A stretch of 64,000 bases of DNA from Candidatus Gottesmanbacteria bacterium GW2011_GWA2_43_14 (lineage in GTDB: Bacteria; Patescibacteriota; Microgenomatia; 2-02-FULL-39-11). Where the stretch lies: positions 13,429-77,428 of the forward strand of contig LCFP01000004.1 of assembly GCA_000999095.1 (NCBI GenBank), given 5' to 3'. The translations under genes and the position numbers were made by a program. Below are positions 14,137-64,000 of this stretch, one piece after another. How positions within the stretch are numbered: position 1 is the stretch's first letter; the number at the start of each line of letters is the position of its first letter. Under the pieces are notes generated by a model. That model was given only the letters and a program-made list of their open reading frames with translations, was not told the origin of the DNA and did no database searches.

Positions 14137-14138
14137 AA

Positions 14139-15652: not shown

Positions 15653-15961
15653 ATGCAGCTGGCCCAGGTTTCAATTGCAGAAAAATATCCACCGGCGAAA
15701 AACTTCCCCACACTCGCCTCTATCATTTCCTCATTCTTACCGAATCTGTTGATCATTGCCGGGGTTATATTTTTCATTCTGACGATTGTCGCGGGCTTCG
15801 TGGTCATCTCTACTGCCGGCCAGGGCGATCCCCACGGTGCGGAACGGGCAAAGTCTTTTCTTACTTATTCCGTTATCGGACTTTTCCTGATTTTTGCTTC
15901 ATACTGGATTTTACAGATAATTAATTACATTTCATTCGGTTCCATGAAAGGATTATTCTGA
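15653..15961 (+). CDS. Small two-helix membrane protein, pilin-like paralog 1 (VirB2/TrbC-like)
   Basis: Layout is TM helix, then AGQGDP, then a second TM helix. It shares the GGD(P/K) core with the three downstream paralogs. Confidence 0.5.
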   Translation: MQLAQVSIAEKYPPAKNFPTLASIISSFLPNLLIIAGVIFFILTIVAGFVVISTAGQGDPHGAERAKSFLTYSVIGLFLIFASYWILQIINYISFGSMKGLF

Positions 15962-16311
15962 TGGCTCTTCCGGCAGATGTGATTGGCAAAATTTCTCCCC
16001 TACCCGGCATGCCGGTCGGCATAAACCCCACCACGGGTGAACTGACGGGCCTCGTCACCATGATGAATGTCATCCTCCGGCTTCTTCTGATCGTGGGGGG
16101 GATTTGGGCATTGTTCAACATCGTCTTAGCCGGCATGGGTTTTATAGGTGCCGGCGGAGATCCGAAAAAAGTGGCTTCCTCCTGGGCTAAAATCTATTGG
16201 TCCTTTATCGGCTTGCTTATCATGGTTTCCGCCTTTCTCCTGGCAGCCATAATCGGTATCATGCTCTTCGGCAACCCGACAGCCATTTTATCTCCCAAAC
16301 TGACAAAATGA
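15961..16311 (+). CDS. Pilin-like paralog 2 (VirB2/TrbC-like)
   Basis: FIGAGGDPKKVASSWAKIYWSFIGLLIMV flanked by hydrophobic helices. Start and stop overlap with the neighbouring paralogs. Confidence 0.55.
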   Translation: MALPADVIGKISPLPGMPVGINPTTGELTGLVTMMNVILRLLLIVGGIWALFNIVLAGMGFIGAGGDPKKVASSWAKIYWSFIGLLIMVSAFLLAAIIGIMLFGNPTAILSPKLTK

Positions 16312-16742
16312 TATTGATATTTTTGTTCATTTCAATTCTTCTTTTTCAATCCCCTCCCTCTGTTTATGCTGCTCCCAGCAATTGTCTGGGGGGCGGTGAA
16401 GGGTTGGGACCGTTTGCCAAATTCCTTTGCGGAGGCGTAGGAGTGACGACTGATGCCGTCGGCAACAGACTCAACTCTGTCATCAGCGCTATCCTGGGCT
16501 TATTAACTGTTATAGCCGGTTTATGGTTTCTGATCCAGTTTATTCTCGCCGGTTTTAATTGGATCAATGCCGGAGGAGACAAGAATAATGCCCAGGCGGC
16601 CTGGCAGAAAATGACCAATGCCGTTGTCGGACTCATTATAGTCGTTTTTGCCTGGGTATTTGTGGCTTTGATCGGTAAACTGCTCAATATAAATATCCTT
16701 GATCCCGGAGATATGTTAAAAAATTTAAAAATAACAGGCTAA
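16308..16742 (+). CDS. Pilin-like paralog 3, carrying a cleavable signal peptide and a Cys pair. Start chosen at MILIFLF.
   Basis: The signal peptide ends VYA-AP. Then CLGGGEG..FLCGG, a TM helix, NWINAGGDKNNAQAAWQKM, and a second TM helix. ATGA overlap with paralog 2. Confidence 0.55.
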   Translation: MILIFLFISILLFQSPPSVYAAPSNCLGGGEGLGPFAKFLCGGVGVTTDAVGNRLNSVISAILGLLTVIAGLWFLIQFILAGFNWINAGGDKNNAQAAWQKMTNAVVGLIIVVFAWVFVALIGKLLNINILDPGDMLKNLKITG

Positions 16743-17093
16743 ATGGAAAAAGTATTGCTGGCACAAATTAAAAATCCGGTTGTACCGAGCTTAAAAAATC
16801 CCAATAATGCTCCGCAAATTATCGGCAAATTTTTTGCCGGGTTTGTGGCATTACTGCTGATTGTCGCTACCCTCTGGTCTTTTTTTAATCTGATTTTGGG
16901 AGCATTTAACTGGATTTCCTCAGGAGGGGACAAGGGCAAACTGGAAACCGCCCAACAGAAGATGCTGCAGGCGGTAATCGGGTTAATCCTGGTTTTTGCT
17001 TCATGGGCAATTTTTATCGTGCTACTCCAGTTTTTGGGATTGTCTCAGGGTCTGGGAGGTAAAATCGAGTTTAAACTACCTACGCTTCTTTAA
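16743..17093 (+). CDS. Pilin-like paralog 4 (VirB2/TrbC-like)
   Basis: NWISSGGDKGKLETAQQKMLQAVIGLILVFASW between two hydrophobic helices. It begins immediately after the stop of paralog 3. Confidence 0.55.
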   Translation: MEKVLLAQIKNPVVPSLKNPNNAPQIIGKFFAGFVALLLIVATLWSFFNLILGAFNWISSGGDKGKLETAQQKMLQAVIGLILVFASWAIFIVLLQFLGLSQGLGGKIEFKLPTLL

Positions 17094-34512: not shown

Positions 34513-36557
34513 CCCTCGCTGCCGAAAAGAATCTCCGCCAAAGATTTGGCCAGCTCGGTTTTACCGACACCGGTTGGCCCCATGAAAATAAAGGAGCCTA
34601 TCGGCCTTTTATTGGACTTTAAGCCCGCCCTTCCGCGTCTGACAGCTTCAGAGACAGCGGAGACTGCTTCTTCCTGATCGATAAGTCTTTTATGAATTGT
34701 CTTTTCCAGTTCCATGAGCTTAAAGGCTTCGTTTTCAGTCAGCCGGGATACGGGAATATTGGTCCAGCGGGCAACAATCTCAGCAATAACTTCTTTATTG
34801 ACCGAGTTGGTGGTGGTGGATTTTTTTATCTGGTACTGTTCTTTCAGCAGATTCAGGTTCTGGACGGTATCCTCGGACTCTTTCTTCAGACTTTCCAGCC
34901 TGATTGTGTCTCCTATCTTTTCCGCTTCTTCTTTCTCGTGCTCCAGTTTCTTCAATTTTGCTTCACTGCTTTTTATTTCCTCAGGTAAAGATATCGCCGG
35001 CAGTCTGACGGCGGCTGCTGCTTCATCAATTAAATCAACAGCCTTATCCGGCAGAAACCTGTCGGCAATATATCTTTGGGAAAGCCTGACAGCTTCTTCG
35101 ATTGTGTCATCCGGAATTTTGACCCGGTGGAAAGCCTCATATTTGTCCCTGATGGCCAAAAGCATCTCAACGGCTGTTTCGGCTGTCGGTTCAGCAACCA
35201 TTATTGGCTGGAACCTTCTTTCCAAAGCCGGATCTTTCTCAATATATTTACGGTATTCCGTAACAGTGGTTGTACCCACCACCTGCAGTTCGCCCCGCGC
35301 TAAGGAAGGTTTAAGGATATTGGAAGCATCCATGGTACCTTCGCCCCCTGAGCCCGCCCCGACCATGTTGTGCAATTCGTCAATAAAAAGAATAACTGAT
35401 CCTGAAGCGGCCTTTACTTCCTTAATCAAATTCTTCAGTCTTTCCTCAAATTCACCTCTGTGCCTGGCTCCGGCGATCAAAGACATCAGATCAAGCTGCA
35501 GTATCTTTTTATTCAAAAGCGTCTCAGGCACGTCACTTCTGGCTATTCTTTGCGCCATGCCTTCGACAATGGCTGTCTTGCCGACTCCGGCGTCACCGAT
35601 TAGAACAGGATTATTTTTAGTTCTGCGTGACAGAATATGGATAACCCTCTCAATTTCCCAGCTCCGGCCGACAACAGGATCAAGTTCTCCCCGGGCAGCC
35701 TTGGCTGTCAGATCTTCAGTAAACTGTTCCAACGTAGTCTGTTTCTTGTCTTCTTTTTTCTTCTCCAGTTCTTTCTTGCCGGTAATTTTCTGGTTCAAAA
35801 CCTCCTGGGTCAGGTGGTTCTTGTTCAAAATTTGGGCAGCCATGCCTTCTCCTTCGTGAGACAAGGCCAAAAGGATGTGCTCAGGCGAGATAAATTCGTA
35901 ACCCAAGGACTTGGCTGTAGACAGGGACAGCTCAAGCACTCTTTTGATTCTGGGTGAAAATTGCGGTGTTCCGGGAAAATTACCTTTTTTGAAGCTTTTT
36001 TCCAAAGCCTGCTGCAAATCAGAGGGTACGGCTTTGCAATCGGAAATCAATTGGTAAATGGATGAATCGGAAAGAAGCGCCCAAAGAACATGCTCCGTAT
36101 CAATATGCTGGACTTTCAGCTCTTTAACTTTAGCAACTGCCTTCATCAGCACATCATTTGCCCTTTGGGTCATCCTGGATAAAACATCCATGCCTACCCT
36201 TTTACCCATATCAATTGAGGCGGCTGTTGTTTGCTGACTGTCGCTCTGATTGACAGGTGCAGGTGAAGCAGCCGGCGCTGTTGTTTGGGTGGAGACGGCT
36301 ACTGATGCAGATGATGGCGTTGCAGCCGGGGGATTGCCGATGCCTGAATAGGCTTGCCCCGATTGGATCGGGGCTTGTTGTCCGGCAGGCGGATTGCCGA
36401 TGCCTGAATAAGCCTGAGGTTGTTCGTTTTGTACTGTTTGGGAAGTATAGGAAACCGAAGCAGATTCCTCCTGCGTATTGGGGGAAACATCAGTCGGTTC
36501 ATTCTTATACTGGTCTTTTTTAAAGTATTTGGTAAACTTAAAGAGTTGACCTGGCAT
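34458..36557 (-). CDS. ClpC-like AAA+ chaperone, N-terminal portion. It covers the low-complexity extension, the Clp_N repeats, D1, a short M-domain and the D2 Walker A, then terminates after the frameshift.
   Basis: HVLWALLSD and HILLAL Clp_N repeats, [18 protein letters not shown] (D1 Walker A), [22 protein letters not shown] (D2 Walker A). The frame is lost just after this. About 45 aa expected between Walker A and Walker B of D2 are missing. Confidence 0.6.
36327..36416. repeat. Two-copy direct repeat (about 30-nt core, 60-nt period) inside the ClpC-like N-terminal extension
   Basis: GGATTGCCGATGCCTGAATA(G/A)GC occurs at 36331 and again at 36391. It encodes the duplicated peptide [11 protein letters not shown]. 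Confidence 0.7.
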
Positions 36558-36717: not shown

Positions 36718-37998
36718 ATGGAACAACACTCTGTACCGCGTAATATTTCCAGCTTCCAATTTCACCTTATCGGTGACATGACGGTCCGCCAATTTGCTTA
36801 TCTTCTCGGAGGCTGCCTTATCGGTTTCGTCCTGTATAAACTGCTGCCTCTGCCGGGATTTTTAGCCATTCCTGCCGCCGGAGCGGCGGTTTTAACCGGT
36901 TTTGCTTTTGCCTTTGTCCCAATTCAGGAAAGGCCGCTGGACAAATGGATTGTCGCATTCATAAAAAGCATAACTTCTCCGACTCAATATCTCTGGCAAA
37001 AACAGGAAGAGATGCCGGACATTTTAGCTTATGCATACAACCGGCCTGTTAAAAGTTTGCCGCAAAACCATCTGGAGGCTCATGCGGATGCTAAAAAAAA
37101 ACTGGATAATTATTTGAACTCTTTGCCTAACCAACCCCACCAGCAAATAAATATCAGGGAAAAACATTATGTAGACAGTACTCTCAAACTCTTCAATACT
37201 ACAAACAGTTTTATTCCGGCAGCAGCTCCTTCATTTACCGCTCCGTCTTCCATACCGCCTGTTTCTGTTTCTGCGCTTCCGTTTACAACGGTGCTTCCGA
37301 TAACCCCTGTCGTCAAACCCGTACAGTCCCCTCCGCCCCCGGTAAAAGCGGATGTCCTCCATCCGCCTTTATCCGCAGCAGTTGCCCCGGTGAATCCTAA
37401 ACCGCTCCCTCCGGCAATACAAAAACCAATTGAAGTCAAAAAAGCGGCGCCCCCACAGCTTCAGCAAATACCGGTTGATCATTCGGAATTAACGGAGATA
37501 CGCCGGGAAAAAGAAAAACTGGAAAAAGAACTGGAAAGACTTAAAGCGGAGATAAGTAAATCTTCCAAAATAACCATCAAACCTGTTGAAGAAAAAGAGC
37601 CGGTCAAACCAACCATCAAGACGGTTACTCCCAAAAGCGCTGTCAATGAAATAGGCATTCCCAAACTTCCCCAGGCTCCAAATATCATTATGGGAGTCAT
37701 CAAAGACAGTAATAAGAGGCTCTTGCCCAATATTATTCTGACCATCAAGGATATCAAAGACAATCCGCACCGGGCTTTGAAAACCAACCGCTTGGGTCAA
37801 TTCTCAACCGCTACCCCCCTGCAAAACGGAACATATTTTGTCGAAGCTGAAGACCCGATGAAAAGATATACTTTTGACATTGCCGAGATCAATTTGTCCG
37901 GCAAGATCTTTCTGCCTATTGAAATTACGGCCAAGGGAGAAAAAGAAAAAATGCGTGAGCAGCTAAACAAAGAACTGTTCAGCAATCCGGGGATATAA
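36718..37998 (+). CDS. Membrane protein with N-terminal TM helices, a Pro-rich linker, a coiled coil and a C-terminal carboxypeptidase-regulatory-like beta-sandwich domain. Candidate T4SS-associated component.
   Basis: Two N-terminal hydrophobic helices. A PxP-rich stretch at about residues 170-250. EKEKLEKELERLKAEI coiled coil. The C-terminal IIMGVIKDSNKRLLPNIILTIKD...NGTYFVEA matches the CarboxypepD_reg pattern. It lies immediately upstream of the VirB4-like ORFs. Confidence 0.5.
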   Translation: MEQHSVPRNISSFQFHLIGDMTVRQFAYLLGGCLIGFVLYKLLPLPGFLAIPAAGAAVLTGFAFAFVPIQERPLDKWIVAFIKSITSPTQYLWQKQEEMPDILAYAYNRPVKSLPQNHLEAHADAKKKLDNYLNSLPNQPHQQINIREKHYVDSTLKLFNTTNSFIPAAAPSFTAPSSIPPVSVSALPFTTVLPITPVVKPVQSPPPPVKADVLHPPLSAAVAPVNPKPLPPAIQKPIEVKKAAPPQLQQIPVDHSELTEIRREKEKLEKELERLKAEISKSSKITIKPVEEKEPVKPTIKTVTPKSAVNEIGIPKLPQAPNIIMGVIKDSNKRLLPNIILTIKDIKDNPHRALKTNRLGQFSTATPLQNGTYFVEAEDPMKRYTFDIAEINLSGKIFLPIEITAKGEKEKMREQLNKELFSNPGI

Positions 37999-38022
37999 TC
38001 ATTTATAATAATCTATAGTATT

Positions 38023-38694
38023 ATGCAGCCGACTTCAGCACCGATCAGGGCGACTACCCAGGAATTTCTGGATATCGAGGACATCATCGATGATATTTTA
38101 ATCCTGAGAAGCGGCGGAGCGGCGGTTTTAATTGAAACAACTGCCGTCAATTTCGGCCTTTTGTCAGAAGAAGAGCAGGATGCCCTAATTTACGCTTATG
38201 CTTCGTTTTTAAATTCCCTGTCCTTTCCCCTTCAGGTGGTTATCCTGTCAAAGCGCATGGACATTTCTTCTTATATTGAATTCATTCTTCAGGAAGAAAC
38301 CAAACAGCCTAATCCTGTTATTAAAGACAGAATCAGAAATTACCGTGAATTCATACTTTCTACAATCAAAGAAAACCGTGTCCTGGAAAAAAAATTCTAT
38401 TTAGTCGTCCCTTTTTCTCCGTTGGAGTTGGGGATTAAAGAAGCATTTTCCGTATCCAACAAAAAGAAAAAGCTGCCTTTTACTAAAGACTACATCCTTT
38501 CCAGATCAAAAACATCACTTTTTCCCAAAAGAGACCACATCCTGAGACAGCTGGGCCGCATAGGACTTAAAGGCAGGCAGCTATCAACCCAGGAACTGGT
38601 GGAGCTTTTCTACAACCTATACAACCCGACCTTTACCGGTGAAAAACTGGGAGAAACAATAGGTTATACTAAACCGTTAGTTGAAGGGGTTTAA
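38023..38694 (+). CDS. VirB4/TcpF-type conjugative ATPase, N-terminal domain, present as a separate ORF
   Basis: TQEFLDIEDIIDDILILRSGGAAVLIETTAVNFGLLSEEEQDALIYAYASFLNSL resembles the N-terminus of Gram-positive VirB4 homologs. The ORF ends with tandem TAA TAA stops, 6 nt before the next ATG and in the same frame. Confidence 0.55.
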   Translation: MQPTSAPIRATTQEFLDIEDIIDDILILRSGGAAVLIETTAVNFGLLSEEEQDALIYAYASFLNSLSFPLQVVILSKRMDISSYIEFILQEETKQPNPVIKDRIRNYREFILSTIKENRVLEKKFYLVVPFSPLELGIKEAFSVSNKKKKLPFTKDYILSRSKTSLFPKRDHILRQLGRIGLKGRQLSTQELVELFYNLYNPTFTGEKLGETIGYTKPLVEGV

Positions 38695-38700
38695 TAACTT

Positions 38701-40644
38701 ATGCTGTCTTTTTTATCTAAAAAGAAAACTGTCAACATCAATCCAGTCCAGACACCGGTATCTCCGGTCCCACCCGCTCTACAGCCGGCAGGACAAACAC
38801 CCGGTGCATCTGCCGCTCAGCCTGTCCCGGTTCAAACTAACACCGCTTCTAAAGCTGCAGAAATAGCCAAAAACACCCAGCTTCAGGCAGCCAAAGAGAA
38901 AATAACCAAAGGCCTGGTCAATATAAAAGACATTATCGCTCCGTCTTTGGTTGAAGTTGATTTTGACCACATTAGAATCAACAACGTCTTTTACAGGACT
39001 TTGTTCGTGGCCGGTTATCCCCGTTATGTAGCTGCAAATTGGCTGCATCCGCTGCTTTCTTTCGACAAATCCCTTTTTATCTCGATGTATATTTATCCGA
39101 CGGAATCAAAAGTCATCCTGGAAGACCTCAAGAGAAAAATTGCCGAGATGGAAGCGACCATTCAGGTAGATATGAAAAGAGGCAAAGTCATTGACCCGTC
39201 AGTCCAGGTTTCGCTTGATGACGCCTTGGCCCTTCAGGCGCAATTGGCAAAAGGAGCCGAAAGATTTTATCAATTTTCCCTCTACATCACAATTCCTTCC
39301 GAAACAATTGAGGATTTAAACAGGTTTGCTAAAGAGGTTGAATCTACCTTGGGTTCACTTTTGATTATCCCCAAACATGCCACTTTATCACAGGAAGAAG
39401 GATTTAAATCAACCCTGCCGATGTCCATTGACAAGCTTGACGTCACCAGAAATATGGACACTACCTCCCTGGCGACTACCTTTCCCTTTACCACCGCTTC
39501 CTTATCCGCCAACGAAGGCATCCTCTATGGAATCAATGAACATGACGGCAGTCTGGTTATTTTCAACCGTTTCAGTCTGGAAAACAGCAATAGCGTTATC
39601 TTCGGAAAATCCGGTGCCGGCAAATCTTTTCTGGTCAAATTGGAAGTCATGCGTACCCTGATGTTCGGGGCTGATGTTTTTGTCATTGATCCGGAAGGGG
39701 AATACAAGGACATAACCAGGGCTTTGGGTGGTGATCTTCTTGACTTCTCATTCAATTCACCCATCAAAATCAATCCTTTCGACCTGTCAGGCATCGTCAC
39801 TGAAGGTGAAAATGAACTCGGCTTAAAAATCCTCTCCATTCACGGACTGATGAGAGTTATCATGGGTGAACTTTCTCCGACTGAAGACGCCCTGCTGGAT
39901 AAAGCATTGGTCCTTACATATAAACAGAAAGGGATAACGCCGGACCCGGAAACCCAGAAAAAAGAACCGCCTTTGATGGAAGATTTGTACAAGGTGCTTT
40001 TGGGAATGGAAGAGGAAAATGCCCGACACCTGGCAGAACGGCTGGAGAAATTTGTTAAAGGATCACTGGCGGGCATCTTTAATCAGCAGTCAAATGTCTC
40101 CCTGAAAAACCAGCTGACGGTTTTCAACATCAAGGAACTGGAGGCGGAACTGCGCCCGATGGCCATATTTTCCATCCTGGATTTTATCTGGACAAAAATC
40201 AAAAGGGATGTCAAAAAAAGATTGCTGATTGTAGATGAAGCATGGTACCTGATGAAACATCCGGATTCCGCCACCTTCCTCTACGGCATAGCCAAAAGAG
40301 CCCGGAAGTATTATCTCGGCGTAACCACCATCACCCAGGATGTCGAAGACTTCCTCTCAACCGACCACGGCAAAGCCATTATTACCAATTCGAGCCTGCA
40401 GATTCTCCTCAAACAATCAACGGCAGCCATCGATAAGCTGGCAGAGGTTTTTTATCTTTCAAGCGGCGAAAAGCACTTCCTGCTCTCGGCCGGGGTAGGG
40501 GAAGGACTGTTCTTTGCCGGAGCTTCACACGCTGCCGTCCAATTTATTGCATCTTCTCAGGAATATCAGCTGGCGACCAGCAAACCTCAGGAAGTAAGGC
40601 AGGATCCCTCCTTTCCCAACGTGCCTAAAATTCCCAGTGTATAA
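38701..40644 (+). CDS. VirB4/TraE/TrsE-type type IV secretion ATPase, C-terminal ATPase portion
   Basis: Walker A FGKSGAGKSF, Walker B RLLIVDEAWYL, and the conserved KYYLGVTTITQDVEDF region. Confidence 0.75.
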   Translation: MLSFLSKKKTVNINPVQTPVSPVPPALQPAGQTPGASAAQPVPVQTNTASKAAEIAKNTQLQAAKEKITKGLVNIKDIIAPSLVEVDFDHIRINNVFYRTLFVAGYPRYVAANWLHPLLSFDKSLFISMYIYPTESKVILEDLKRKIAEMEATIQVDMKRGKVIDPSVQVSLDDALALQAQLAKGAERFYQFSLYITIPSETIEDLNRFAKEVESTLGSLLIIPKHATLSQEEGFKSTLPMSIDKLDVTRNMDTTSLATTFPFTTASLSANEGILYGINEHDGSLVIFNRFSLENSNSVIFGKSGAGKSFLVKLEVMRTLMFGADVFVIDPEGEYKDITRALGGDLLDFSFNSPIKINPFDLSGIVTEGENELGLKILSIHGLMRVIMGELSPTEDALLDKALVLTYKQKGITPDPETQKKEPPLMEDLYKVLLGMEEENARHLAERLEKFVKGSLAGIFNQQSNVSLKNQLTVFNIKELEAELRPMAIFSILDFIWTKIKRDVKKRLLIVDEAWYLMKHPDSATFLYGIAKRARKYYLGVTTITQDVEDFLSTDHGKAIITNSSLQILLKQSTAAIDKLAEVFYLSSGEKHFLLSAGVGEGLFFAGASHAAVQFIASSQEYQLATSKPQEVRQDPSFPNVPKIPSV

Positions 40645-40653
40645 TAAAAAGGT

Positions 40654-42087
40654 ATGTCCCAAAAACCAGCTCCTTCCCGAGAAATAGAGGCAGAAGGAGA
40701 ACAACAGGGATTTGACCTCGACCAGCAGGATACCGCTACCTGGGCATCACTGGTTCAGCTGACCGGAGCCATCGGTGCCGGAGGATTTCAGTACGTTGAC
40801 GAAACAAGAAAAGCCTTTAATACCGTTAATGATGAGAATATCCATAATAAATTATTAAACCTTGAAAACCCTCAAAAACTCCAAAAAGTCATTTATGACT
40901 ATCAGCTTATCGGGCGTAGGCTGAAAACTCCGGAAAAAGAAAGCACAAAATTTGCCTTCTATAATTTCAAAGGAGAAGTCACCAGAGACAGGTTCGATCG
41001 GGTTGGCCAGGCAATCATAGTTGCCAGACAAATCCATCAATATACCAATAAAGTTGAGACATCGATAAGATTTGATAAAACAATTAAAGCTTATGGTTTC
41101 AGTGAAGAGACTGTCCAACAATTACGCAAAAACCTGACTGAATGGCAGGAAAAAAATCCGGGAGCGGAAATAGATAATATTCTTTCCAACCAATCAAAGA
41201 AACTATACGGGGAACAATGCGCAAAAGATGGAAAAAAAGCTGATAAAAATATTGAAACCGCATTAAAAAAAGACTTAACAACAGCCAGGAAAGAAGCGTT
41301 AATTAAGGTAGATGAATTGGGGGTAAGAGATAGAGCTGAAAGCGTCATCAAAAACGACTTTTTAAATAATCAAAATGCTCCATTAAAAGAAGAACAAATT
41401 AAAACCAGGCTGGAGTATGTTTTTGAAGGAAAAATCCCTGAAGAAAAATTGGCAGGAGTCGTGGAAAAAACGGTTGAATCTGCCAGGACTTTTCAGGAAC
41501 CCGCAAGCAAACCCTTACCCCAGGTAGGAAAATCTCCTTTGCCCCGGTCTTTTTCTTTTCCGCAAATCAGACTTTCGACGATAAAAATTTCCATCAGGTT
41601 ACCGAATTTGGTCGGATTGGGAAATTTGGGCGGGTCCTTACTCAGACAGGGAGCGACAAAACTGGCCGGGAAGTTGGCCGGAAAAGCCGTAGCACAAACA
41701 GCCTTGGGAGCGGCAACGGGAGGAGTGTATAACGCCATCAGTCTCCTAGCTTCATTTTTCGGTATTAATTTGGATGACATAGCTATAAAGGTTGCCTTAT
41801 GGGCCGGAATCCTGGCAGTTGGGGTCCCGGCAGCTATAGTCGTCTTTTTTATCTTTAGCAGCAGTAATTCATCCCGCTTGTTTGATCCCCAAGCTGTAAC
41901 GCAGGAAGAGGTTTTTTACCAAAATTCCAGACATTTTGCCTGGAAAAGGTTTGAGGAGAAAAATCTCAAGATTTTAGATACTTCTGCTTCCTGGATTGCT
42001 TTTGAAAAAGAGCGTCTGGATTTGGACAACCGGCTGGTCGAACGACTATCCCTGGACCCGGACCGGCATAATGATGTGGAGAAATGA
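40654..42087 (+). CDS. Hypothetical protein with a C-terminal TM cluster, possibly a T4SS-associated membrane component
   Basis: 477-aa ORF starting 10 nt after the VirB4 stop. Hydrophobic helices lie at about residues 370-420. Its 3' end overlaps dnaN by 42 nt. Confidence 0.4.
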   Translation: MSQKPAPSREIEAEGEQQGFDLDQQDTATWASLVQLTGAIGAGGFQYVDETRKAFNTVNDENIHNKLLNLENPQKLQKVIYDYQLIGRRLKTPEKESTKFAFYNFKGEVTRDRFDRVGQAIIVARQIHQYTNKVETSIRFDKTIKAYGFSEETVQQLRKNLTEWQEKNPGAEIDNILSNQSKKLYGEQCAKDGKKADKNIETALKKDLTTARKEALIKVDELGVRDRAESVIKNDFLNNQNAPLKEEQIKTRLEYVFEGKIPEEKLAGVVEKTVESARTFQEPASKPLPQVGKSPLPRSFSFPQIRLSTIKISIRLPNLVGLGNLGGSLLRQGATKLAGKLAGKAVAQTALGAATGGVYNAISLLASFFGINLDDIAIKVALWAGILAVGVPAAIVVFFIFSSSNSSRLFDPQAVTQEEVFYQNSRHFAWKRFEEKNLKILDTSASWIAFEKERLDLDNRLVERLSLDPDRHNDVEK

Positions 42088-43155
42088 GATTTTATCGCTT
42101 TTGGGTTTAAAAACTCCCGGTGATAAGGGGCCCGACGATTCAAAAACCAGTTCTTTTTCCGGAAAATTACTTAGAAGATCCAGAAGGAAACGGAAATTAA
42201 ACGCCACTTCGCTTTCTTCCCCTTCGACCTTGGCTTCTACATAATCGCTTTCTTCGCCCACCTGAGGAGTGTTGGCCGACAACCTAAGTCCTTCCTTCTC
42301 AATTTTCATCTTAATGATATTGGCGGCACCGCGGGCAAAGATGGAAGTAGTTTTAACTGCCTGGGTAAATAATTCCTTATCCAGTATCACTCTGGTTTTA
42401 AAACTGTCGGGTATTATTTTTTCAACATTAGGGAATTCTCCGTCAATCAGACGGCTGTAAATTTTAGTATCAGGCATTGAAAATACCACCTGATTTTTAT
42501 TTTCAATGATTGAGATATCCAAATCCGCAGCTTTTAATTCCTGGGCTATTCTGACAACTTCAAAAAGTGATGATGCGGGCAAAACAACATCGAGAAGCTC
42601 GTTCTTTGAAGGAATCGCCACTTCTTCTTTGGACAACCTGTAACCGTCGGTGGCCGACATGGACAATATGCCGTCGTCAATTTTTGTTCTGACTCCGGTT
42701 AAAATCGGCCTTCCTTCATCAATGGAAGCGGCAAAAGCCGTCCTAATGATTGAATCCTTGACTTTGGCAAATGGCAGTTTTCGGTCAAATGATAAAGGCT
42801 GCGGGAAAGTAGGGAAGTCGGCAGGATTACCGATGGCAAAAGAAGCCCTGGTGGTATCGGTTTTGACTTCCAGGTTTTTGTCGGTTGCCGTTATCTCCAG
42901 CTTATCCGCTCCAAGTGAGTTTATAAATTCCGTAAGCAATTTTCCCGGTATGGCCACCTCTCCTTCTTTTTCTATTTTGGCTGAGGTTTGGTAAATGATC
43001 CCGAGTTCCAGATTGGTAGAAAGAAACTCCAATTGGTTTTTAGCACCCCGAAGTAAAATATGGGAAAGAATCGGCAGCTGCGGTCTTAGGGAAATTCCTT
43101 TTCCGACAATTGATAAAGCTCTTACAATATTCTCTTTTAAAATTAATATTTTCAT
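42046..43155 (-). CDS. dnaN: DNA polymerase III beta sliding clamp
   Basis: The N-terminus MKILILKENIVRALSIVGKGISLRPQLPILSHILL is typical DnaN. Three-domain length of 369 aa, downstream of dnaA. Confidence 0.85.
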   Translation of the reverse strand: MKILILKENIVRALSIVGKGISLRPQLPILSHILLRGAKNQLEFLSTNLELGIIYQTSAKIEKEGEVAIPGKLLTEFINSLGADKLEITATDKNLEVKTDTTRASFAIGNPADFPTFPQPLSFDRKLPFAKVKDSIIRTAFAASIDEGRPILTGVRTKIDDGILSMSATDGYRLSKEEVAIPSKNELLDVVLPASSLFEVVRIAQELKAADLDISIIENKNQVVFSMPDTKIYSRLIDGEFPNVEKIIPDSFKTRVILDKELFTQAVKTTSIFARGAANIIKMKIEKEGLRLSANTPQVGEESDYVEAKVEGEESEVAFNFRFLLDLLSNFPEKELVFESSGPLSPGVFKPKSDKISFLHIIMPVRVQG

Positions 43156-43354: not shown

Positions 43355-44695
43355 TTATCCAGAAAACCGGTTTTTTATCCCCAAGATATCACCACGGATT
43401 TTTTCGTCCTGACCAATAAGGTCGCTGATTTTGCGGACTCCGTGAAGTATGGTTGTATGGTCCCGCCCGCCCAAAAGATCACCGATTTGTTCAAGACCTA
43501 TGCCGATTTCCGTTCTTAATAAATAATAAAGAATTTGTCTGGGCAAGCTATAAATTTTATCCCTTTTAGAACTTTTTAATTGGGAAACTTTCAACTGATA
43601 GAAAGCGGCTACAATTTTAACTACTTCTTCCGGTTGCATATTTTTTTCCAGAACGGGAATTCTCAGGGTTTTTCCCAATACATTTTTTACCAGCTCGGCA
43701 TCAAGCGGAATATCTTTGGTTTGCGCCTCACTGATAATCCTGATAAGGAGACCCTCGAGTTTTCTCGTGTTTTCAACGTTGGCTGAAAGTAGCTTGGCGG
43801 CATCCATCGGCAAATCTACCTGCCGCTGTTTAGCTTTTATCAGTAAAATGGCTGTTCTAAGTTCAAAATCAGGGTTGCCGATATCGATGGTCAGACCGCC
43901 CTCAAAACGGGACCTGAGCCTTTCTTCCAACTTGTCAATTTCCTCCGGTTGCCTGTCGCTGGTTATGATAATCTGTTTTTTTGCCTGGTATACAGCGTTG
44001 AACGTATGAAAAAATTCTTCCTGGATGGAATATTTACCGGCGATAAACTGGACGTCATCGATCAGCAGGATATCGGTCTGGCGGTATTTTTTTTTGAAAG
44101 AGGTGGTAGTTTTATTGGAGATAGCCTCGATTATTTCGTTGGTGAATTCTTCACCGGTACAGAAAATAATTTTAATTTTAGGATTTTTGGAAAGTACTGA
44201 ATGTCCGATGGCCTGCATCAGATGGGTTTTGCCCACTCCAGTGCCGCCGTAGAGAAAGAGGGGATTATAGGAAAAACCCGGATTTTTGGAAACGGCGGTG
44301 GCTGCCGCATATGCCATTTGATTGGTTGAGGAAACGGCAAAATTGGCGAAAGTATAGTCTTTGTTCAGTCTGCCCAACTCCGGCAGGAAATTGGCCGGAG
44401 TAACTCTCATGGAAAATAGAGGTCCGTCGATGTGGTCGCCGTTGGTCTTTTTTTTGGCGGCTTTGAAAGACAAAGTTAAATCTTTCTGGGTGTATTGTTT
44501 TAAGGTGTCCCTGATTAAGACCTGGTAGCGTTTCTCGATCAGGTTTATCAACATCGGGTTATTGCAATTAATAACTGCTTCTTTATCATTGAGGGCTTCC
44601 AAAGAGGTTTGGGAGATCAGGGTTTGGAATACTACTTTGCTGACTTGAAGCTGAAGGTCAGCTAAAATAGTTTGCCAAAGACTAACGTTGTCCAT
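43355..44695 (-). CDS. dnaA: Chromosomal replication initiator protein DnaA. Start chosen at MDNVSLWQ.
   Basis: AAA+ Walker A GGTGVGKTHL, Walker B LLIDDVQF, and a C-terminal DNA-binding helix-turn-helix (DHTTILHGVRKI). A perfect DnaA box TTATCCACA lies at 44719-44727, just upstream. Confidence 0.9.
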   Translation of the reverse strand: MDNVSLWQTILADLQLQVSKVVFQTLISQTSLEALNDKEAVINCNNPMLINLIEKRYQVLIRDTLKQYTQKDLTLSFKAAKKKTNGDHIDGPLFSMRVTPANFLPELGRLNKDYTFANFAVSSTNQMAYAAATAVSKNPGFSYNPLFLYGGTGVGKTHLMQAIGHSVLSKNPKIKIIFCTGEEFTNEIIEAISNKTTTSFKKKYRQTDILLIDDVQFIAGKYSIQEEFFHTFNAVYQAKKQIIITSDRQPEEIDKLEERLRSRFEGGLTIDIGNPDFELRTAILLIKAKQRQVDLPMDAAKLLSANVENTRKLEGLLIRIISEAQTKDIPLDAELVKNVLGKTLRIPVLEKNMQPEEVVKIVAAFYQLKVSQLKSSKRDKIYSLPRQILYYLLRTEIGIGLEQIGDLLGGRDHTTILHGVRKISDLIGQDEKIRGDILGIKNRFSG

Positions 44696-44781
44696 AGGAT
44701 TTCCACATCGTAAGAAAGTTATCCACAATTGTCAACGAGCTAGAAATGATATTTTCTATTATTTGTGATATCATTTACAAA

Positions 44782-58411: not shown

Positions 58412-61400
58412 TTGACGATTAAAACTACTTCCACTTATGATAGATACATGGCAATAGAACAGGGCCCTTACGGTAACAAGGCCAATTTTGTGGCTAAACT
58501 TATAGAAGCAATAAACAGAGCCCTCAGGGCAAAAAAAAACGATGGACACTTATTGCACGCAGCTTCTGAAGCCAAAAAGAAAATGGAGGAAGAGGAAACG
58601 CTTAAAAAGAGAATTGAAGCAGAAAATAAAAAAAAGGAAGAAGATGCTAATCGTCAGTATCATGAGAGAAGATCAGCACAGACCAGAGTCCAGACTAATG
58701 ACATTGATGAAGCCAGAAGACAAATCCATCAATCCAAAGCCGTTGATATAAAGACCCAAGTTAATACTGTTATTGAACAGCCGGCTCCGGACGAGAGCGA
58801 AATAACCACCGGTTACGAGTCAGCTTCATATTTACTGGTTGCCTATAGGGATGACCTGACTTTACGTCACGGTTTACATAATCTGATTGATTCAAACAGT
58901 AAATTCGCTTTAATTATCGACGAATTAACCCGAAAAGCAAACGATGTCCATATCAAACCAGCAGAACTTTTGAGGTTGGGCAAAGTATTATATTCCATCA
59001 CGCCGTCAGATCAAAAGCATATCATTCAGCCATTGATGTCAGGTCTCAACAGGAGAATTAAAGACTTGATTGATAGAATGTCTGACCGGGCAGTGGAAAA
59101 TGCCATGGAACGGGGAATGCATGTACCGGCGAAAGAAGAATTTACCAAAAGAATCATCAAGGATATCGCCAAGAAAATTGAGGCTTATATTTCGGAAGAG
59201 GAGTCTGAATCTTTAAAAAACATAGATCAGTATGAGGCAGCTGTTGATAGGATATTATCCACAGTCCAACCTCAGGTAGGGGAAACGCATGAGTTTGAGA
59301 ACGAAGTCGAAAAAAATACACTTCCGAGAAAAGCTATTGAAAAAATCGACAATGTCTGGGAAAAAGTCGATATGGCAGACAGGTCCGGCAAGACACTCAC
59401 GGTCGATGAACTTAGGGAGCTGGAAAGGGAAATATATGCAAATGAATCTGCATCTTATCCTACAGATGTCATACCCGGCAGCAAATCGTATTTAACCGAA
59501 GTTAATGCCATACACGGATATACTGAAAAAAGACTGGACAATTTAGCCGAAAGGTTACGGCTCCAGTTACAGCGGGAAAGTCCCGATATAAAAGAGGGCA
59601 TAACTGATCCGAAGGAATTTTTGAAATCTATAGAGCAGCCAGGATACCTCGTCCGTCTTTTAGACAGTAGTCCTGAGATGAAAAAACTATTTTTAAGTAC
59701 CGACGAGAAAGGCTATAAGTTCAGAAATAAAATCTTTTTGAAAATTCACGCGCAAATTTTAACCCAAAAAAGGGAATCCTCAAATGATAATTTCGGGCTT
59801 TATGAAAGGGCTGATTTTACTTCATTTATCAACCTTTTAAGAAGCGGTATGGGAGATATAAAAGTACCTTCATACGGAAAATCCCTAGGTCTGACTTGGG
59901 GGGAATGGTATACCAATTTAAGCAATACGATCAGACATTCCAGAGATATTGATTTCTGGGCATCGCAACCTGCTGCATCTATGGATAACTTCAATAAATC
60001 CCTGGCTATGTTCCAGAACGAATACACTGCACAAGCTTTATCAATTCCTGCGGTAGATCAGGCATACCGGGCTTATGAAACAACTCTTAATATTATCAGG
60101 GACACAAACGACGGTTATATCCCGCCGGCGCTGGTCGAGTTTGATCCTGTTAAAAACACCAATTTTTGGGATGATGAAGCCCAAAATATCCTGACCAAAA
60201 TGATATCCCAGGGGGTAGTCTATGATGCCAAACGGGATTACAGGCGATTTGGCGGTTTGCCGGTTGTATCCGAAGACGGTGCCAGTTTTGAGTTGGGAGA
60301 AAAAATAACGGCTGAGGATGTAGCAGAAGATGAGGAAAACCTGGAACAGCAAATGTATATGACACTAGCTAAAGGATTCGGCATGGCTTCAATGAGATTT
60401 CTCGAAATAATTTCTAATTCCAAAGTACCGGGAAGCAATATTAACGGGGAAGATGTGCCCGGATTTCACAGTAATGTGTATGAAGGTATCACTACCGCTT
60501 TAAACTATTGGAATGTCTTTATGAAAAAATGGAAAGTCCATTCATACAAACATTTTTACTTATTCAATACCGTTTTGCCCATGGATAAAAAGTTACCGGT
60601 GGACGCACGGGGAGCTGAAAAAGCTTACCGAGCCTGGTTGGATGGTACTTTTGAAGATAAGTACGGCAGCGAAGCGAAGAGGATGATTGATACCATGAAT
60701 TTTTCCAGGACACACTCAGCTCTCGGGCCGACTACACCCTGGCGTTTGCTTGATGACACAATAGGTTGGACTGACAAACAGCGGGAATTGATGGGATCTT
60801 CGATCAGAATTCTTTTAGCACACAGGCTGACGGGAGAAAAAGTAAAAGAATTTTTAGTCATTCGGAAATATAAAGAAATGTTCAGGAAGGCCAAAAAAGA
60901 CGCCGGCGAGCCCCATGTAGGTTCAGCCTTTGAAGCACTCTGGCAAAGTGAAGGAACGGCAATTTACGGGACAAATATTGATAGCGAATGGGGAGAGTTG
61001 CAGCATCATCATGCTGCGGAAATTAAAAAACTGTCGGCCAATTTTATAAATATATATAAAGCCAGGATGTGGGTAGAAATGGCAATGAGAAATCCATTGG
61101 CTATTGCCCACAATGCTGAGATCAATGTTCCGGTTGCCGGATACAAAGGTTCGACGAAAAGAAGAAAACTGAACAGCTATATCATTGAAGAAGTCTTAGG
61201 CATAAAACCTGAAGACCTGGATACCGGTACAGTCGTTGACGGAGAAGGAATTTATCAGATAAGTGCAGCTAAATATTCTTCACCAACACTTAAACAGATC
61301 ACTAATACGCAGGAAGTGCTTGATCTTGAGGGAGATTTGATAGCTGTCAGGGAAATAGCTTTAAAGGAAAACAGAGAACTAAAAGCTGCTGATTTTAATA

Positions 61401-62350
61401 TTATCCAAAATGATAAAAGAAAGCAGGATGCCTTAAAATACTGGCAAATTGTCAGGGAGTACACATTAGGCACAGCGGATGAAAATGCCTTTAATGATAT
61501 ATATAACGATTTGGGCATAACTTATCGTCTTGACCCAGCCACCGGTAAAGAGATGGAATACTACGACATTGATTGGCATAAAATTAAAAACGCCGACAAA
61601 TTTTTCGGCCATCTGGATGAGTCATATAAAAGCAAGCCTTTAATTTTAAAGGACGGGCAAGATGTAATTGTCGGAACGCCCATTGCTTTTAATGAAAAGT
61701 GGTTGGATAAAGACTGGGGCTGGATTTTTTCGACAGATGATGCTGCCTTCCGTAAAATGGCCTTTTTAAATCTTGGCGGCAGGCAATGGGTGAGAAGAGG
61801 AGGGGATGTGGCCGCTCATCACGCCGGGGGTTTAGAAGTAGCCAAATATATGGATGTCAATTTAACCCCAAACCCGGAGATTCGTGATTTAGCAGAACAA
61901 TTGATGAAGATCAGACAGGGATATCAATCGGATGATTTGACAGTTGGATGGAGAGTAGTCGGGCAGATTGCCCATCTGACCAGCAAATTGTATGAAATGG
62001 ACTATAAGAAATTAGGGTTATCAAGTGCCCAAAAGGATTTGTGGAAAACCAGAAGAAATGTCGCCTCCTGGAATGCCAATAGAAGAAGGGAATTCTGGGA
62101 TGCTTTGGAGCATATTGATTTACTGCCTCCGCACGATCAATTTGATCATTTTGGCTGGGAAACATTCAAAGATGATCCATACATGAATATCCATAAATTA
62201 AGAAAATTAAATCATGCTGATAACACTGACGTCTGGACGGAAATTATTACTTTAGGACTGATGCTGGCCATTGCCATAACCCTCTGGCGAGCGTTTACCG
62301 CTCCCAGCGAAGAAGAGGGTGCAAGTGGAGGCGGCGGGGGACACCGCTAA
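58412..62350 (+). CDS. Giant protein (1312 aa) with a single C-terminal TM anchor and a Gly-rich tail. No recognisable catalytic motif.
   Basis: Uninterrupted 3.9-kb ORF. The N-terminal 100 aa are Lys/Glu-rich. The C-terminus reads ITLGLMLAIAITLWRAF followed by GGGGGHR. Confidence 0.55.
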   Translation: MTIKTTSTYDRYMAIEQGPYGNKANFVAKLIEAINRALRAKKNDGHLLHAASEAKKKMEEEETLKKRIEAENKKKEEDANRQYHERRSAQTRVQTNDIDEARRQIHQSKAVDIKTQVNTVIEQPAPDESEITTGYESASYLLVAYRDDLTLRHGLHNLIDSNSKFALIIDELTRKANDVHIKPAELLRLGKVLYSITPSDQKHIIQPLMSGLNRRIKDLIDRMSDRAVENAMERGMHVPAKEEFTKRIIKDIAKKIEAYISEEESESLKNIDQYEAAVDRILSTVQPQVGETHEFENEVEKNTLPRKAIEKIDNVWEKVDMADRSGKTLTVDELRELEREIYANESASYPTDVIPGSKSYLTEVNAIHGYTEKRLDNLAERLRLQLQRESPDIKEGITDPKEFLKSIEQPGYLVRLLDSSPEMKKLFLSTDEKGYKFRNKIFLKIHAQILTQKRESSNDNFGLYERADFTSFINLLRSGMGDIKVPSYGKSLGLTWGEWYTNLSNTIRHSRDIDFWASQPAASMDNFNKSLAMFQNEYTAQALSIPAVDQAYRAYETTLNIIRDTNDGYIPPALVEFDPVKNTNFWDDEAQNILTKMISQGVVYDAKRDYRRFGGLPVVSEDGASFELGEKITAEDVAEDEENLEQQMYMTLAKGFGMASMRFLEIISNSKVPGSNINGEDVPGFHSNVYEGITTALNYWNVFMKKWKVHSYKHFYLFNTVLPMDKKLPVDARGAEKAYRAWLDGTFEDKYGSEAKRMIDTMNFSRTHSALGPTTPWRLLDDTIGWTDKQRELMGSSIRILLAHRLTGEKVKEFLVIRKYKEMFRKAKKDAGEPHVGSAFEALWQSEGTAIYGTNIDSEWGELQHHHAAEIKKLSANFINIYKARMWVEMAMRNPLAIAHNAEINVPVAGYKGSTKRRKLNSYIIEEVLGIKPEDLDTGTVVDGEGIYQISAAKYSSPTLKQITNTQEVLDLEGDLIAVREIALKENRELKAADFNIIQNDKRKQDALKYWQIVREYTLGTADENAFNDIYNDLGITYRLDPATGKEMEYYDIDWHKIKNADKFFGHLDESYKSKPLILKDGQDVIVGTPIAFNEKWLDKDWGWIFSTDDAAFRKMAFLNLGGRQWVRRGGDVAAHHAGGLEVAKYMDVNLTPNPEIRDLAEQLMKIRQGYQSDDLTVGWRVVGQIAHLTSKLYEMDYKKLGLSSAQKDLWKTRRNVASWNANRRREFWDALEHIDLLPPHDQFDHFGWETFKDDPYMNIHKLRKLNHADNTDVWTEIITLGLMLAIAITLWRAFTAPSEEEGASGGGGGHR

Positions 62351-62355
62351 CCGAA

Positions 62356-63810
62356 TCAACGGTTTTCTTTTTTACCCCCCAGTAAATTGCTTATAATTGG
62401 CATTTGCTTCATATAGTAGAATTGGCTGGCAGCGCCCATCGATGTTTGCGCAGCTCCTGTTAACGGGGCAAAAGCTGTTCCGGCTGATATTGGCAGAATC
62501 GGCTTGGGTTTGAACAATTTCTTGATTTGGGCAATCAAACTTGGTGCCAGAAAAAGAACTCCCAAGCCCAGGAAAGCCGGAAAAGACCCTTTTCCGGGTA
62601 CACCAATTAAAGGCGGTGAAAATAGGTCGCCGGTATCGGTGTTAATAGTTGTCAGAAACTCGGCAAACATGAGAACAGCCACGGTTGTGGGAAAAACAAC
62701 CAAATTGGCAATGACATTCATGATCCAGTCCGAAAAAGCAGTCCGGCCGGGAACCGCTTCCAAAAGCAACTGTATCGGACCAAGAACAATAGAAATTATC
62801 AGTTGGATATAGGAATTTAACAACAGCATAAAGATTCTGATAAAAGTAAAAAGAAGACCTAAGAATACCAACAGTATTCCGAGTAATCCGATTAAACTTA
62901 TACCCAGCGCCACACCACCGAAGCCGAGCAGACCTCCAAGAACTCTTAATGCAATCGTCACTCCGGCACCGCCGACACTGTAGGCGGCAAGATTCTTAAG
63001 CAGAAAATCGTCCAAAGAGCTGAATCCTCCTCCCATGACGTGCTTAAAGAGATCGCCAAAATCCGCTGTCAGGAAATAGGTTTGGATTTCGGCAGCACGG
63101 CTGGCATGACCCATCCCTTCGGACAGGATGCTGATAAGTATGGCCATAGTGACATACATGAAGTCAACCAGGAAACCTACGATGGCATAGGAAAGCGTGA
63201 TTAAAAGAAGCGACAAAACAATCCTGGGCAGAGCTGCCTGGACGCTGATGACGGTTTTCGGATCAATTTTCATCCGGAAAATCACCATAAAGCCGATGGC
63301 GACCATGACGATGATGATGACTGTATAGGCAATATTGCGGGTGACTTTCCAGAGGGGAAGGATAGGAGCCAGTCCGGCAAAGCCGATTCCCTGGGCATAG
63401 ACCGGTTTTGCCAGCAAACCGGCATTCTGCATCAGATCTTGGGCATAATAGATGCCGGAAGCCGGCGGCAGGGCAAACAGGGAGGCTGTCAGGATCGATA
63501 CTCCGTTCAAAGCGGTATTTTTATTGCATTTTTCCGGGTCACGGCGGGTACAGCCTAAATTGCTGGCCAAAGCGTTTAATGTTGCTTCGAACTGAAATTC
63601 GTTTACATGCAGTCCGTCTACACAAGGCTTACCGCTTGCTTCGGCGCATTCATCTGAGGCATCCTTTTGCAGGTGGTAATTTTCCGGATCGGAAAGATCA
63701 TAAACATCATTGGGATTTTGCGCTTGTGAGGATGACGGTAATAAAAGGCTGAAAGCCACCAGCAGAATGCTGATTACCATAAGCCAATATCTTCCGGATA
63801 GGTATTTCAT
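62356..63810 (-). CDS. Cys-rich polytopic membrane protein, candidate VirB6/TrbL-like T4SS channel component
   Basis: Signal peptide, then a Cys-containing exoplasmic segment, then at least eight hydrophobic helices. It lies immediately downstream of a pilin-like paralog. Confidence 0.35.
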   Translation of the reverse strand: MKYLSGRYWLMVISILLVAFSLLLPSSSQAQNPNDVYDLSDPENYHLQKDASDECAEASGKPCVDGLHVNEFQFEATLNALASNLGCTRRDPEKCNKNTALNGVSILTASLFALPPASGIYYAQDLMQNAGLLAKPVYAQGIGFAGLAPILPLWKVTRNIAYTVIIIVMVAIGFMVIFRMKIDPKTVISVQAALPRIVLSLLLITLSYAIVGFLVDFMYVTMAILISILSEGMGHASRAAEIQTYFLTADFGDLFKHVMGGGFSSLDDFLLKNLAAYSVGGAGVTIALRVLGGLLGFGGVALGISLIGLLGILLVFLGLLFTFIRIFMLLLNSYIQLIISIVLGPIQLLLEAVPGRTAFSDWIMNVIANLVVFPTTVAVLMFAEFLTTINTDTGDLFSPPLIGVPGKGSFPAFLGLGVLFLAPSLIAQIKKLFKPKPILPISAGTAFAPLTGAAQTSMGAASQFYYMKQMPIISNLLGGKKENR

Positions 63811-63844
63811 CTATTTCTATTATTGGTTAGAGGCAACGAGAGTG

Positions 63845-64000
63845 TCAAGGCGCTTGGGGTATTTCAAAAACCGTAATGGTCACACCGGTATAGACTTCGA
63901 TAAGGCGGAATATCAGAAAGGCAATCACCATCAGGAAAAGACCGGCAACAGCATAAGTCATTGTTTGTTTGGCCGAAGCAGTAGCTTTGGGATCACCGCC
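63845..64000 (-). CDS. Pilin-like paralog 5 (VirB2/TrbC-like). It is 5' truncated by the window edge.
   Basis: Translation of the minus strand gives GGDPKATASAKQTMTYAVAGLFLMVIAFLIFRLIEVYTGVTITVFEIPQAP*. This carries the same GGDP core and following helix as the 15.6-17.1 kb paralogs. Confidence 0.5.
   Translation of the reverse strand, partial: GGDPKATASAKQTMTYAVAGLFLMVIAFLIFRLIEVYTGVTITVFEIPQAP

Follow-up and report, generated by a model that had tools for sequence, protein, structure and literature searches.

What kind of membrane protein is encoded directly behind the pilin gene at one edge of a groundwater patescibacterial contig, and does it belong to the secretion system whose ATPase is encoded on the same contig? 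The DNA in question (the window) comprises 64,000 nucleotides of Candidatus Gottesmanbacteria bacterium GW2011_GWA2_43_14, a groundwater member of the Microgenomatia within the Patescibacteria, bacteria that depend on host cells (contig LCFP01000004.1, positions 13,429 to 77,428). At its far edge, a truncated open reading frame (ORF), here named pil6, precedes the gene for a 484-amino-acid (aa) protein, here named M484. With a probability of roughly 0.75, we read this region as the 3′ end of a pilin-plus-platform module of a chromosomal, monoderm-type (MPF_FATA-like) type IV secretion system (T4SS), with M484 as a VirB6-fold protein encoded directly after pil6.

Both genes lie on the minus strand. 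The last 51 codons of the small ORF occupy positions 64000 to 63848, followed by its stop codon (63847 to 63845); the translation within the window reads GGDPKATASAKQTMTYAVAGLFLMVIAFLIFRLIEVYTGVTITVFEIPQAP*, with the stop at 63845. The ORF of M484 (63810 to 62356) begins 34 bp 3′ of it and is codirectional. The view past position 64000 is provided by a 113-kb groundwater metagenome contig (L001; ENA ERZ978281) that matches M484 exactly and whose coordinates convert as window = 73811 − L001. On this contig, the edge ORF is a complete gene of 112 aa, preceded on its 5′ side by a 120-aa gene of the same kind (pil5; L001 9261-9623, just past window position 64000) and then by a divergent DivIC gene. 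The two features of the window edge are as follows.

63845..64000, minus strand: 3′ end of pil6 (51 codons plus stop); full gene of 112 aa at L001 9628-9966, start at ~64183 in window numbering; PF18895, 34.0 bits, E = 3.2e-8
62356..63810, minus strand: M484, polytopic membrane protein of predicted VirB6 fold, 484 aa; signal peptide, exoplasmic domain, and membrane core

By sequence, the edge ORF is a VirB2-like protein of the T4SS_pilin family (PF18895); that it polymerizes into a pilus is a prediction. The fragment inside the window scores only 18.7 bits (E = 0.0019), which is below the Pfam gathering threshold of 26.6 bits, whereas full-length pil6 passes it, as does pil5 (35.1 bits). The extension of the contig that the sequence-only reading of this DNA had called for thus yielded a complete pilin gene with a pilin neighbor. 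That reading had also likened the edge ORF to a four-gene array about 47 kb away, and rightly so: the two share the same two-helix hairpin and GGD loop across a distance of 46.8 kb. The array (pil1 to pil4) reads as follows.

15653..15961, plus strand: pil1, 102 aa; PF18895, E = 2.9e-8; ortholog of array position 1
15961..16311, plus strand: pil2, 116 aa; PF18895, E = 3.4e-6; ortholog of array position 2
16308..16742, plus strand: pil3, 144 aa; PF18895, E = 3.4e-9; ortholog of array position 3
16743..17093, plus strand: pil4, 116 aa; PF18895, E = 2.6e-4 (subthreshold); custom hidden Markov model (HMM), E = 3e-32; ortholog of array position 4

The Pfam threshold is passed by pil1, pil2, and pil3, and pil4 falls short of it. 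For pil3, whose start is an ATG overlapping the pil2 stop (the mechanical ORF begins at TTG 16197), there are additional matches to TrbC/VirB2 (E = 0.0042) and to the NCBIfam model for the Mbov_0395 pilin-like protein of conjugal transfer (E = 4.4e-6). All six pilins form a hairpin of two hydrophobic helices around a GGD or GGDP loop, which in pil6 can be read from the sequence as helix ILQISIALALFALMVMLVIGGF, loop KFLTSGGDPKATASAKQT, and helix MTYAVAGLFLMVIAFLIF. Because pil1 to pil4 and the two genes on L001 make six such hairpin pilins, the edge ORF is counted as the sixth paralog and not, as previously numbered, the fifth. A gene for a VirB4-family ATPase (38701 to 40644) occurs in the same window as pil6, and pilins and VirB4 are encoded in one cluster in eight loci from relatives (L027, L029 to L031, L033, L034, L037, and L038).

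The six pilins map one-to-one, and in order, onto positions 1 through 6 of the six-gene arrays of seven of eight relatives (L004, L010, L011, L013, L016, L019, and L021); in the eighth (L012), array positions 5 and 6 are swapped. By best-hit mapping, orthologs share 43 to 67% identity and paralogs within a genome share 25 to 45%. Judged from their sequences, the six paralogs are an ancient, noninterchangeable VirB2-like set, and the strict one-to-one orthology argues for distinct structural roles rather than for antigenic variation through recent amplification.

M484 begins with a predicted signal peptide (residues 1 to 31, a segment ending in SSQAQ, with Ala30 conserved in 92 of 96 homologs), continues with an exoplasmic helical domain (approximately residues 32 to 145) and a helical membrane core (approximately residues 148 to 432), and contains the conserved motifs PPASG and YAQGIGF. 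After the signal peptide there are seven to eight hydrophobic segments, in keeping with a VirB6 protein, for which at least five helices are expected, and the predicted model consists of long helices with predicted local distance difference test (pLDDT) values of 85 to 97. These features agree with the earlier description of a codirectional, polytopic protein with a signal peptide and a Cys-containing exoplasmic segment, although calling it "Cys-rich" overstated the matter: there are 4 Cys in 484 residues, all of them in the exoplasmic N-terminal part (residues 55, 63, 87, and 95), and wide conservation is limited to C87 (26 of 31 close homologs) and C95 (20 of 31). The family is large. When 1.84 billion cluster representatives were searched with its profile, 3,457 clusters (defined at 50% identity) were retrieved at E ≤ 0.001 and 2,317 at E ≤ 1e-30, and the named relatives, from Gottesmanbacteria, Microgenomates, WWE3, and other Patescibacteria, are all annotated as "hypothetical protein." Neither Pfam nor NCBIfam has a model for it.

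The resemblance to VirB6 appears in the fold. When the M484 model was compared with 350,542 PDB chains by Foldseek, the top eight matches were all TrwI/VirB6 chains of plasmid R388 (E = 3.8e-3 to 0.39; probability 1.00 to 0.87), and the matches that followed reached a probability of at most 0.23. Across two methods and two models, VirB6-type proteins rank at the top, with ~80% of the resolved TrwI chain covered; on these predicted models, M484 has the three-dimensional fold of VirB6. Sequence profiles give a different picture. Scans of M484 against Pfam and NCBIfam returned no family at E ≤ 1, Pfam scans of a further 25 members of the family, the most distant ones among them, returned only noise below the cutoffs (DUF6358, DUF3671, TraG_N at E = 0.17, and CreD at E = 3.8e-4), and the family profile searched against PDB sequences produced only a chance match (E = 6.1), although four distant members of the family bear a "faint" precomputed PF19590 TrbL_3 mark. 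With VirB6-type proteins at the top of the structure search and no match to a TrbL/VirB6 HMM, M484 falls outside the HMM-defined TrbL/VirB6 group while matching it in fold.

Gene context supplies the second line of evidence. Pilins are encoded 5′ of the M484 homolog and on the same strand in 28 of 30 loci, and within 200 bp of it in 20 of these (the count covers loci whose upstream sequence extends for 1.5 kb or more, and it includes some duplicates in which one genome was retrieved twice). In the most distant loci of the Microgenomatia type (L027 and L029 to L034), a pilin array is followed by the M484 homolog, a convergent gene for 600 to 940 aa, at least one further gene, and a VirB4-like ATPase, with one extra gene between the array and M484 in most loci. 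The distance from M484 to VirB4 is 5.3 to 6.2 kb in the six of these loci in which VirB4 was detected (L027, L029 to L031, L033, and L034), and in L030 a PrgI/VirB3-like gene between the two is confirmed by Pfam. In a WWE3 locus (L037), the M484 homolog is 750 bp 5′ of PrgI-like, TraC-like, and VirB4 genes and beside dnaN/dnaA, and in L038 it is 2 kb 5′ of a VirB4 fusion protein, again next to dnaN/dnaA. Across relatives, the gene for M484 is thus linked to virB2, virB3, and virB4.

In loci of the WWE3 type (L037, 7110 to 9329; L036, 673 to 2955), a Peptidase_M23 protein of ~750 aa is also encoded divergently and directly 5′ of the M484 homolog; it could be the cell-wall hydrolase (VirB1 analog) of the system. 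No counterpart was seen adjoining M484 in the window.

The window itself encodes the ATPase and its partners in a separate cluster of four genes.

36718..37998, plus strand: PrgI/VirB3-like bitopic protein, 426 aa; PF12666 PrgI, E = 6.9e-10; two adjacent hydrophobic segments
38023..38694, plus strand: soluble protein of 223 aa between the VirB3-like and VirB4-like genes; no Pfam match; positional equivalents in L037 and L038 are PF26593 TraC-like
38701..40644, plus strand: VirB4-like ATPase, 647 aa; PF19044 P-loop_TraG, E = 1.6e-26; PF12846 AAA_10, E = 5.5e-16; weak phmmer match to TrwK of R388
40654..42087, plus strand: 477-aa protein 3′ of VirB4; no Pfam match; single hydrophobic region near the C terminus

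Parts of the system are accordingly found at three places in the window, as the sequence-only reading had proposed: pil1 to pil4 (15653 to 17093), the VirB3-like and VirB4-like genes (36718 to 40644), and pil6 with M484 (62356 to 64000). By hydrophobicity profile, none of the four proteins of the VirB4 cluster (36718 to 42087) is polytopic, so that the cluster offers no competing candidate for VirB6. The 477-aa protein was considered for this role and rejected, as its one hydrophobic region does not make it polytopic.

Several observations weigh against assigning M484 to VirB6. In the source genome, M484 is ~22 kb away from VirB4. The comparison set a predicted monomer against solved VirB6 structures whose conformations are those of an assembled machine. 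No TrbL/VirB6 model of Pfam (PF04610; PF19590 TrbL_3) matched M484 or the 25 other family members at E ≤ 1, in a scan for which TrwI, as a control, scores E = 4.9e-50. Profile-profile alignment of M484 and the TrwI family by hhalign was not significant with narrow profiles (probability 0.07%), nor with broader ones, which aligned M484 residues 311 to 431 with TrwI residues 149 to 269 over 115 columns (E = 0.039; probability 1.3%); the VirB6 profile in these comparisons is shallow, built from TrwI relatives of >50% identity. This alignment, suggestive although nonsignificant, pairs G344-P345 of M484 with G180-P181 of TrwI and W362 with W199. A conserved Trp in a central loop is a hallmark of VirB6 (PMC7648143), and W362 is situated in a short loop between helices and is invariant in all 31 close homologs; however, it is present in just 70 of the 96 sequences of the broad alignment, being invariant only in the Gottesmanbacteria-type subfamily. 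The earlier proposal that the 484-aa protein is VirB6-like is supported by fold and gene context, but the TrbL/VirB6 sequence profiles do not include it.

The missing HMM match and the nonsignificant hhalign results, together with two features atypical for a minimal VirB6, namely an exoplasmic domain of ~115 residues and a signal peptide that can be cleaved off, would suit a lineage-specific membrane protein that acts within the pilin/T4SS module (for example, as a pilin insertase, chaperone, or anchor) and resembles VirB6 by convergence. We regard this as unlikely: the two fold-comparison methods and both models agree in placing VirB6-type proteins first over most of the TrwI chain, the alignment by hhalign runs collinearly along the TrbL core and matches GP and W residues that are conserved, VirB6 proteins extended by predicted signal peptides and additional domains have been described (PMC7648143), and no other candidate for VirB6 was found near VirB4 in the window, L037, or L038. 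Very improbable, in our estimation, is that the small proteins are not pilus subunits at all and that the locus stands outside the T4SS, encoding Sec-dependent small membrane or surface proteins alongside an unrelated, syntenic permease or transporter. The separation of the locus from VirB4 in the source genome would fit such an arrangement, as would the facts that Gram-positive-type T4SSs normally lack pilins (PMC12102498, PMC12857230) and that no pilus has been observed in these organisms. In distant lineages, however, the pilins are clustered with M484, the VirB3-like gene, and VirB4, and Southlakia epibionticum cannot do without the pilin array of its T4SS cluster (PMC10633639). A match to a transporter or permease family had been named beforehand as the result that would speak against a VirB6-like role; the Pfam and NCBIfam scans of M484 and the Pfam scans of its 25 relatives contain none, and transporters score poorly in the fold searches. 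With support from neither family nor fold, a transporter or permease identity for M484 was rejected.

If M484 is the VirB6-fold platform that we favor, a mechanism can be proposed by analogy with VirB6 of R388 and DotA of Legionella. R388 VirB6 is a pentamer, of which one transmembrane helix is proposed to recruit VirB2 and the upper surface to nucleate the pilus (PMC9259494), and DotA is an analogous pentameric protochannel (PMC12857230). By this analogy, the pilins would be inserted into the cytoplasmic membrane as two-helix hairpins, and M484 would form an oligomer, probably a pentamer, within the membrane and above the complex of the VirB3-like protein and the VirB4 ATPase (36.7 to 40.6 kb). 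It could then recruit pilin subunits and provide the base on which these are pulled from the membrane and polymerized into a pilus-like conduit toward the host cell, and its N-terminal helical domain, after cleavage of the signal peptide, would face outward.

How far does the likeness to known systems extend? TrwI/VirB6 of R388 (PDB 7O3V, 8RT9, and 8RTD; PF04610 TrbL) is, like M484, a polytopic helical membrane protein that is encoded with VirB2-type pilins and VirB3/VirB4, and the two possibly have a GP...P-x4-F-x2-W motif in common. They share no significant sequence or profile similarity, and identity in the structural alignments is ~10 to 16%. M484 exceeds TrwI by 140 residues and differs from it in carrying a cleavable signal peptide as well as an exoplasmic helical domain with a probable disulfide; moreover, its host is monoderm, and the partners VirB5, VirB7, VirB9, and VirB10 of the R388 system were not detected here. 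DotA of the Legionella Dot/Icm type IVB system (PDB 9NGY), at rank 11 of the Foldseek search and 11% identity, is far larger (857+ residues) and, unlike M484, works with IcmX in a diderm machine that translocates effectors.

Parallels also come from other Patescibacteria, whose T4SSs are situated near dnaA, usually lack a relaxase, and have an MPF_FATA-like VirB4 (PMC12102498). The system of Southlakia epibionticum (SEML1_0006-0019) has, as here, a chromosomal MPF_FATA-like VirB4 and a PrgI/VirB3-like partner next to dnaN/dnaA (PMC12102498, PMC10633639, PMC12857230), as well as an array of six sequence-divergent VirB2-like pilins, and in this species, the only patescibacterium that is genetically tractable, it is essential, the six-pilin array included (PMC10633639, PMC12857230). 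VirB2-like arrays of 2 to 11 divergent genes occur especially in Microgenomatia, where they are abundant, and in Saccharimonadia (PMC12102498), and no pilus has yet been demonstrated for any Patescibacterial T4SS (PMC12857230). In the window, too, a relaxase was not seen, though no systematic search for one was made. What sets the source genome apart from other Patescibacterial systems is that its module is spread over three sites around the origin. Among monoderm systems, PrgH of pCF10 and relatives and CDS16 of the Mycoplasma integrative and conjugative element (ICE) are likewise polytopic T4SS proteins that are VirB6-like mainly by topology and position (PMC12857230), a likeness drawn here from their descriptions. 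A further likeness is that pil3 (16308 to 16742) gives weak matches to two NCBIfam models, that of the Mycoplasma ICE pilin-like protein and that of pLS20_p028. These systems differ in that they generally lack VirB2-type pilins.

Since T4SSs and pilin arrays of Patescibacteria are already published, the novelty here is modest and consists of a large family, without a profile model, as a candidate for VirB6. It amounts to a refinement that is useful for annotation and modeling, in that both the component and its system are known and M484 is a divergent version of the former. A published survey found few VirB6 homologs in Microgenomatia and none in Gracilibacteria, "suggesting extreme sequence divergence" (PMC12102498), and M484 is a good candidate for this scarce component. 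The survey of Quinonero-Coronel et al. (2025) found VirB6 mainly through the MPF_T VirB6 profile, whereas M484 is recognized by none of the profile libraries tested. A VirB6 role for M484 would complete the parts list of these genomes; the family gives annotators a new profile to build; and six ordered pilins, a VirB6-like protein, a VirB3-like protein, and VirB4 are defined partners for multimer modeling of a possible monoderm pilus. More tentatively, and with the odds somewhat against it, the M484 family could be the general VirB6 equivalent of much of the Patescibacteria, its secreted N-terminal helical domain replacing the missing VirB5 cap and six fixed, nonredundant pilins building a heteromeric, pilus-like conduit in a monoderm. 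If true, this would explain why profile surveys find VirB6 to be scarce in Microgenomatia and absent in Gracilibacteria, and it would provide a concrete structural model for the connection between epibiont and host.

Why, then, are the pilins of the source genome in two places? The arrays pil1 to pil4 (15653 to 17093) and pil6, on opposite strands, had been taken for two loci. In two more distant Gottesmanbacteria (L003, GCA_016186845.1, and L004), there is one contiguous locus, consisting of flanking genes, six to eight pilins, the M484 homolog, and a convergent homolog of the large gene that adjoins M484 in the window (BIG, described below). The left flank of this locus, divergent from the array, comprises an ECF (extracytoplasmic function) sigma factor, a small ORF, a Yip1-like gene, and HMG-CoA reductase, and the same ECF-sigma/Yip1/HMG-CoA-reductase flank adjoins pil1 in the window (12988 to 15551). 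On the right, BIG and then hexokinase adjoin M484 in the window, as in the conserved outer flank. The split state, with only two pilins 5′ of M484, is common to the closest relatives (L002, L006, L007, L009, L014, and L024). The cumulative GC skew reaches its minimum at 40 to 44 kb, beside dnaN (42046 to 43155) and dnaA (43355 to 44728), with pil4 ~28 kb and pil5 ~20 kb from the origin on opposite sides, each keeping its orientation relative to the origin.

Because the positional orthology of the pilins, the outer flanks, and the geometry about the origin all fit an inversion with one breakpoint between pil4 and pil5, we infer that the two pilin sets are one ancestral six-gene array, probably cut between these genes by an inversion centered on the origin. 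Were one to consider only the 47 kb and the opposite strands that separate the sets, a second pilin locus that was independently duplicated or acquired would seem a natural account. We judge it to be extremely improbable, given the one-to-one correspondence with contiguous six-gene arrays, the conservation of the outer ECF sigma/Yip1/HMG-CoA reductase flank and of the outer BIG/hexokinase flank, and a geometry about the origin that fits a symmetric inversion; moreover, paralogs that are just 25 to 45% identical indicate that no pilin is a recent copy. An independent second locus was rejected on the strength of orthology and flanks, and what the sequence-only reading had called a second locus is better described as the detached 3′ end of one ancestral array.

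The window as a whole is centered on the replication origin, and its VirB3-like/VirB4 cluster abuts dnaN, as published for Patescibacteria. The genes divergent from pil1 (14139 to 15551, minus strand) are an ECF-type sigma factor (14988 to 15551), an overlapping small ORF, and a Yip1-like membrane protein; as this trio also flanks the pilins of L003 and L004, its role may be to regulate the array specifically. A tRNA-like sequence, recognized by eye, is situated at L001 8770-8845 (~65.0 kb in window numbering), just past DivIC and 5′ of pil5, near the proposed breakpoint.

Two further features adjoin M484, one on either side.

58412..62350, plus strand: BIG, 1312 aa, with one C-terminal transmembrane helix (aa 1274-1292); convergent with M484, stop codons 5 bp apart
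63819..63848, minus strand: sigma-70-like promoter match TTGACA-18-AATAAT, 11/12, from a consensus scan (L001 9963-9992), in the 34-bp spacer between pil6 and M484

BIG has no Pfam, NCBIfam, or PDB match and no Walker A motif. Its homologs are convergent with, and 3′ of, M484 in 19 of 25 loci (within 100 bp in 15 of them), all of which are of the Gottesmanbacteria type. The profile of BIG does not detect the convergent genes for 608 to 941 aa at the equivalent place in distant loci, and BIG is therefore not assigned to the system; it could serve the T4SS as a lineage-specific accessory protein or be one of its substrates. The promoter match, a pattern match only, stops 8 nt 5′ of the M484 ATG, such that a transcript starting from it would be nearly leaderless. 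A second 11/12 match to the sigma-70 consensus, likewise only a pattern match, is located 5′ of pil5 (L001 9213-9242).

Elsewhere in the window, ClpB is distributed over two overlapping ORFs on the minus strand (32653 to 34512 and 34458 to 36557), with the break in the second AAA domain: positions 1 to 31 of the AAA_2 profile end one ORF, and the other starts at about position 79. The split could reflect a frameshift, an assembly error, or a genuinely split gene. A 1443-aa ORF (25697 to 30028, minus strand) without a significant Pfam match adjoins a 784-aa DUF4012 protein (22546 to 24900, minus strand) and an RNase H-like gene; the 1443-aa ORF and the DUF4012 gene are large, uncharacterized genes of envelope type, located between the pilin array and the VirB4 cluster.

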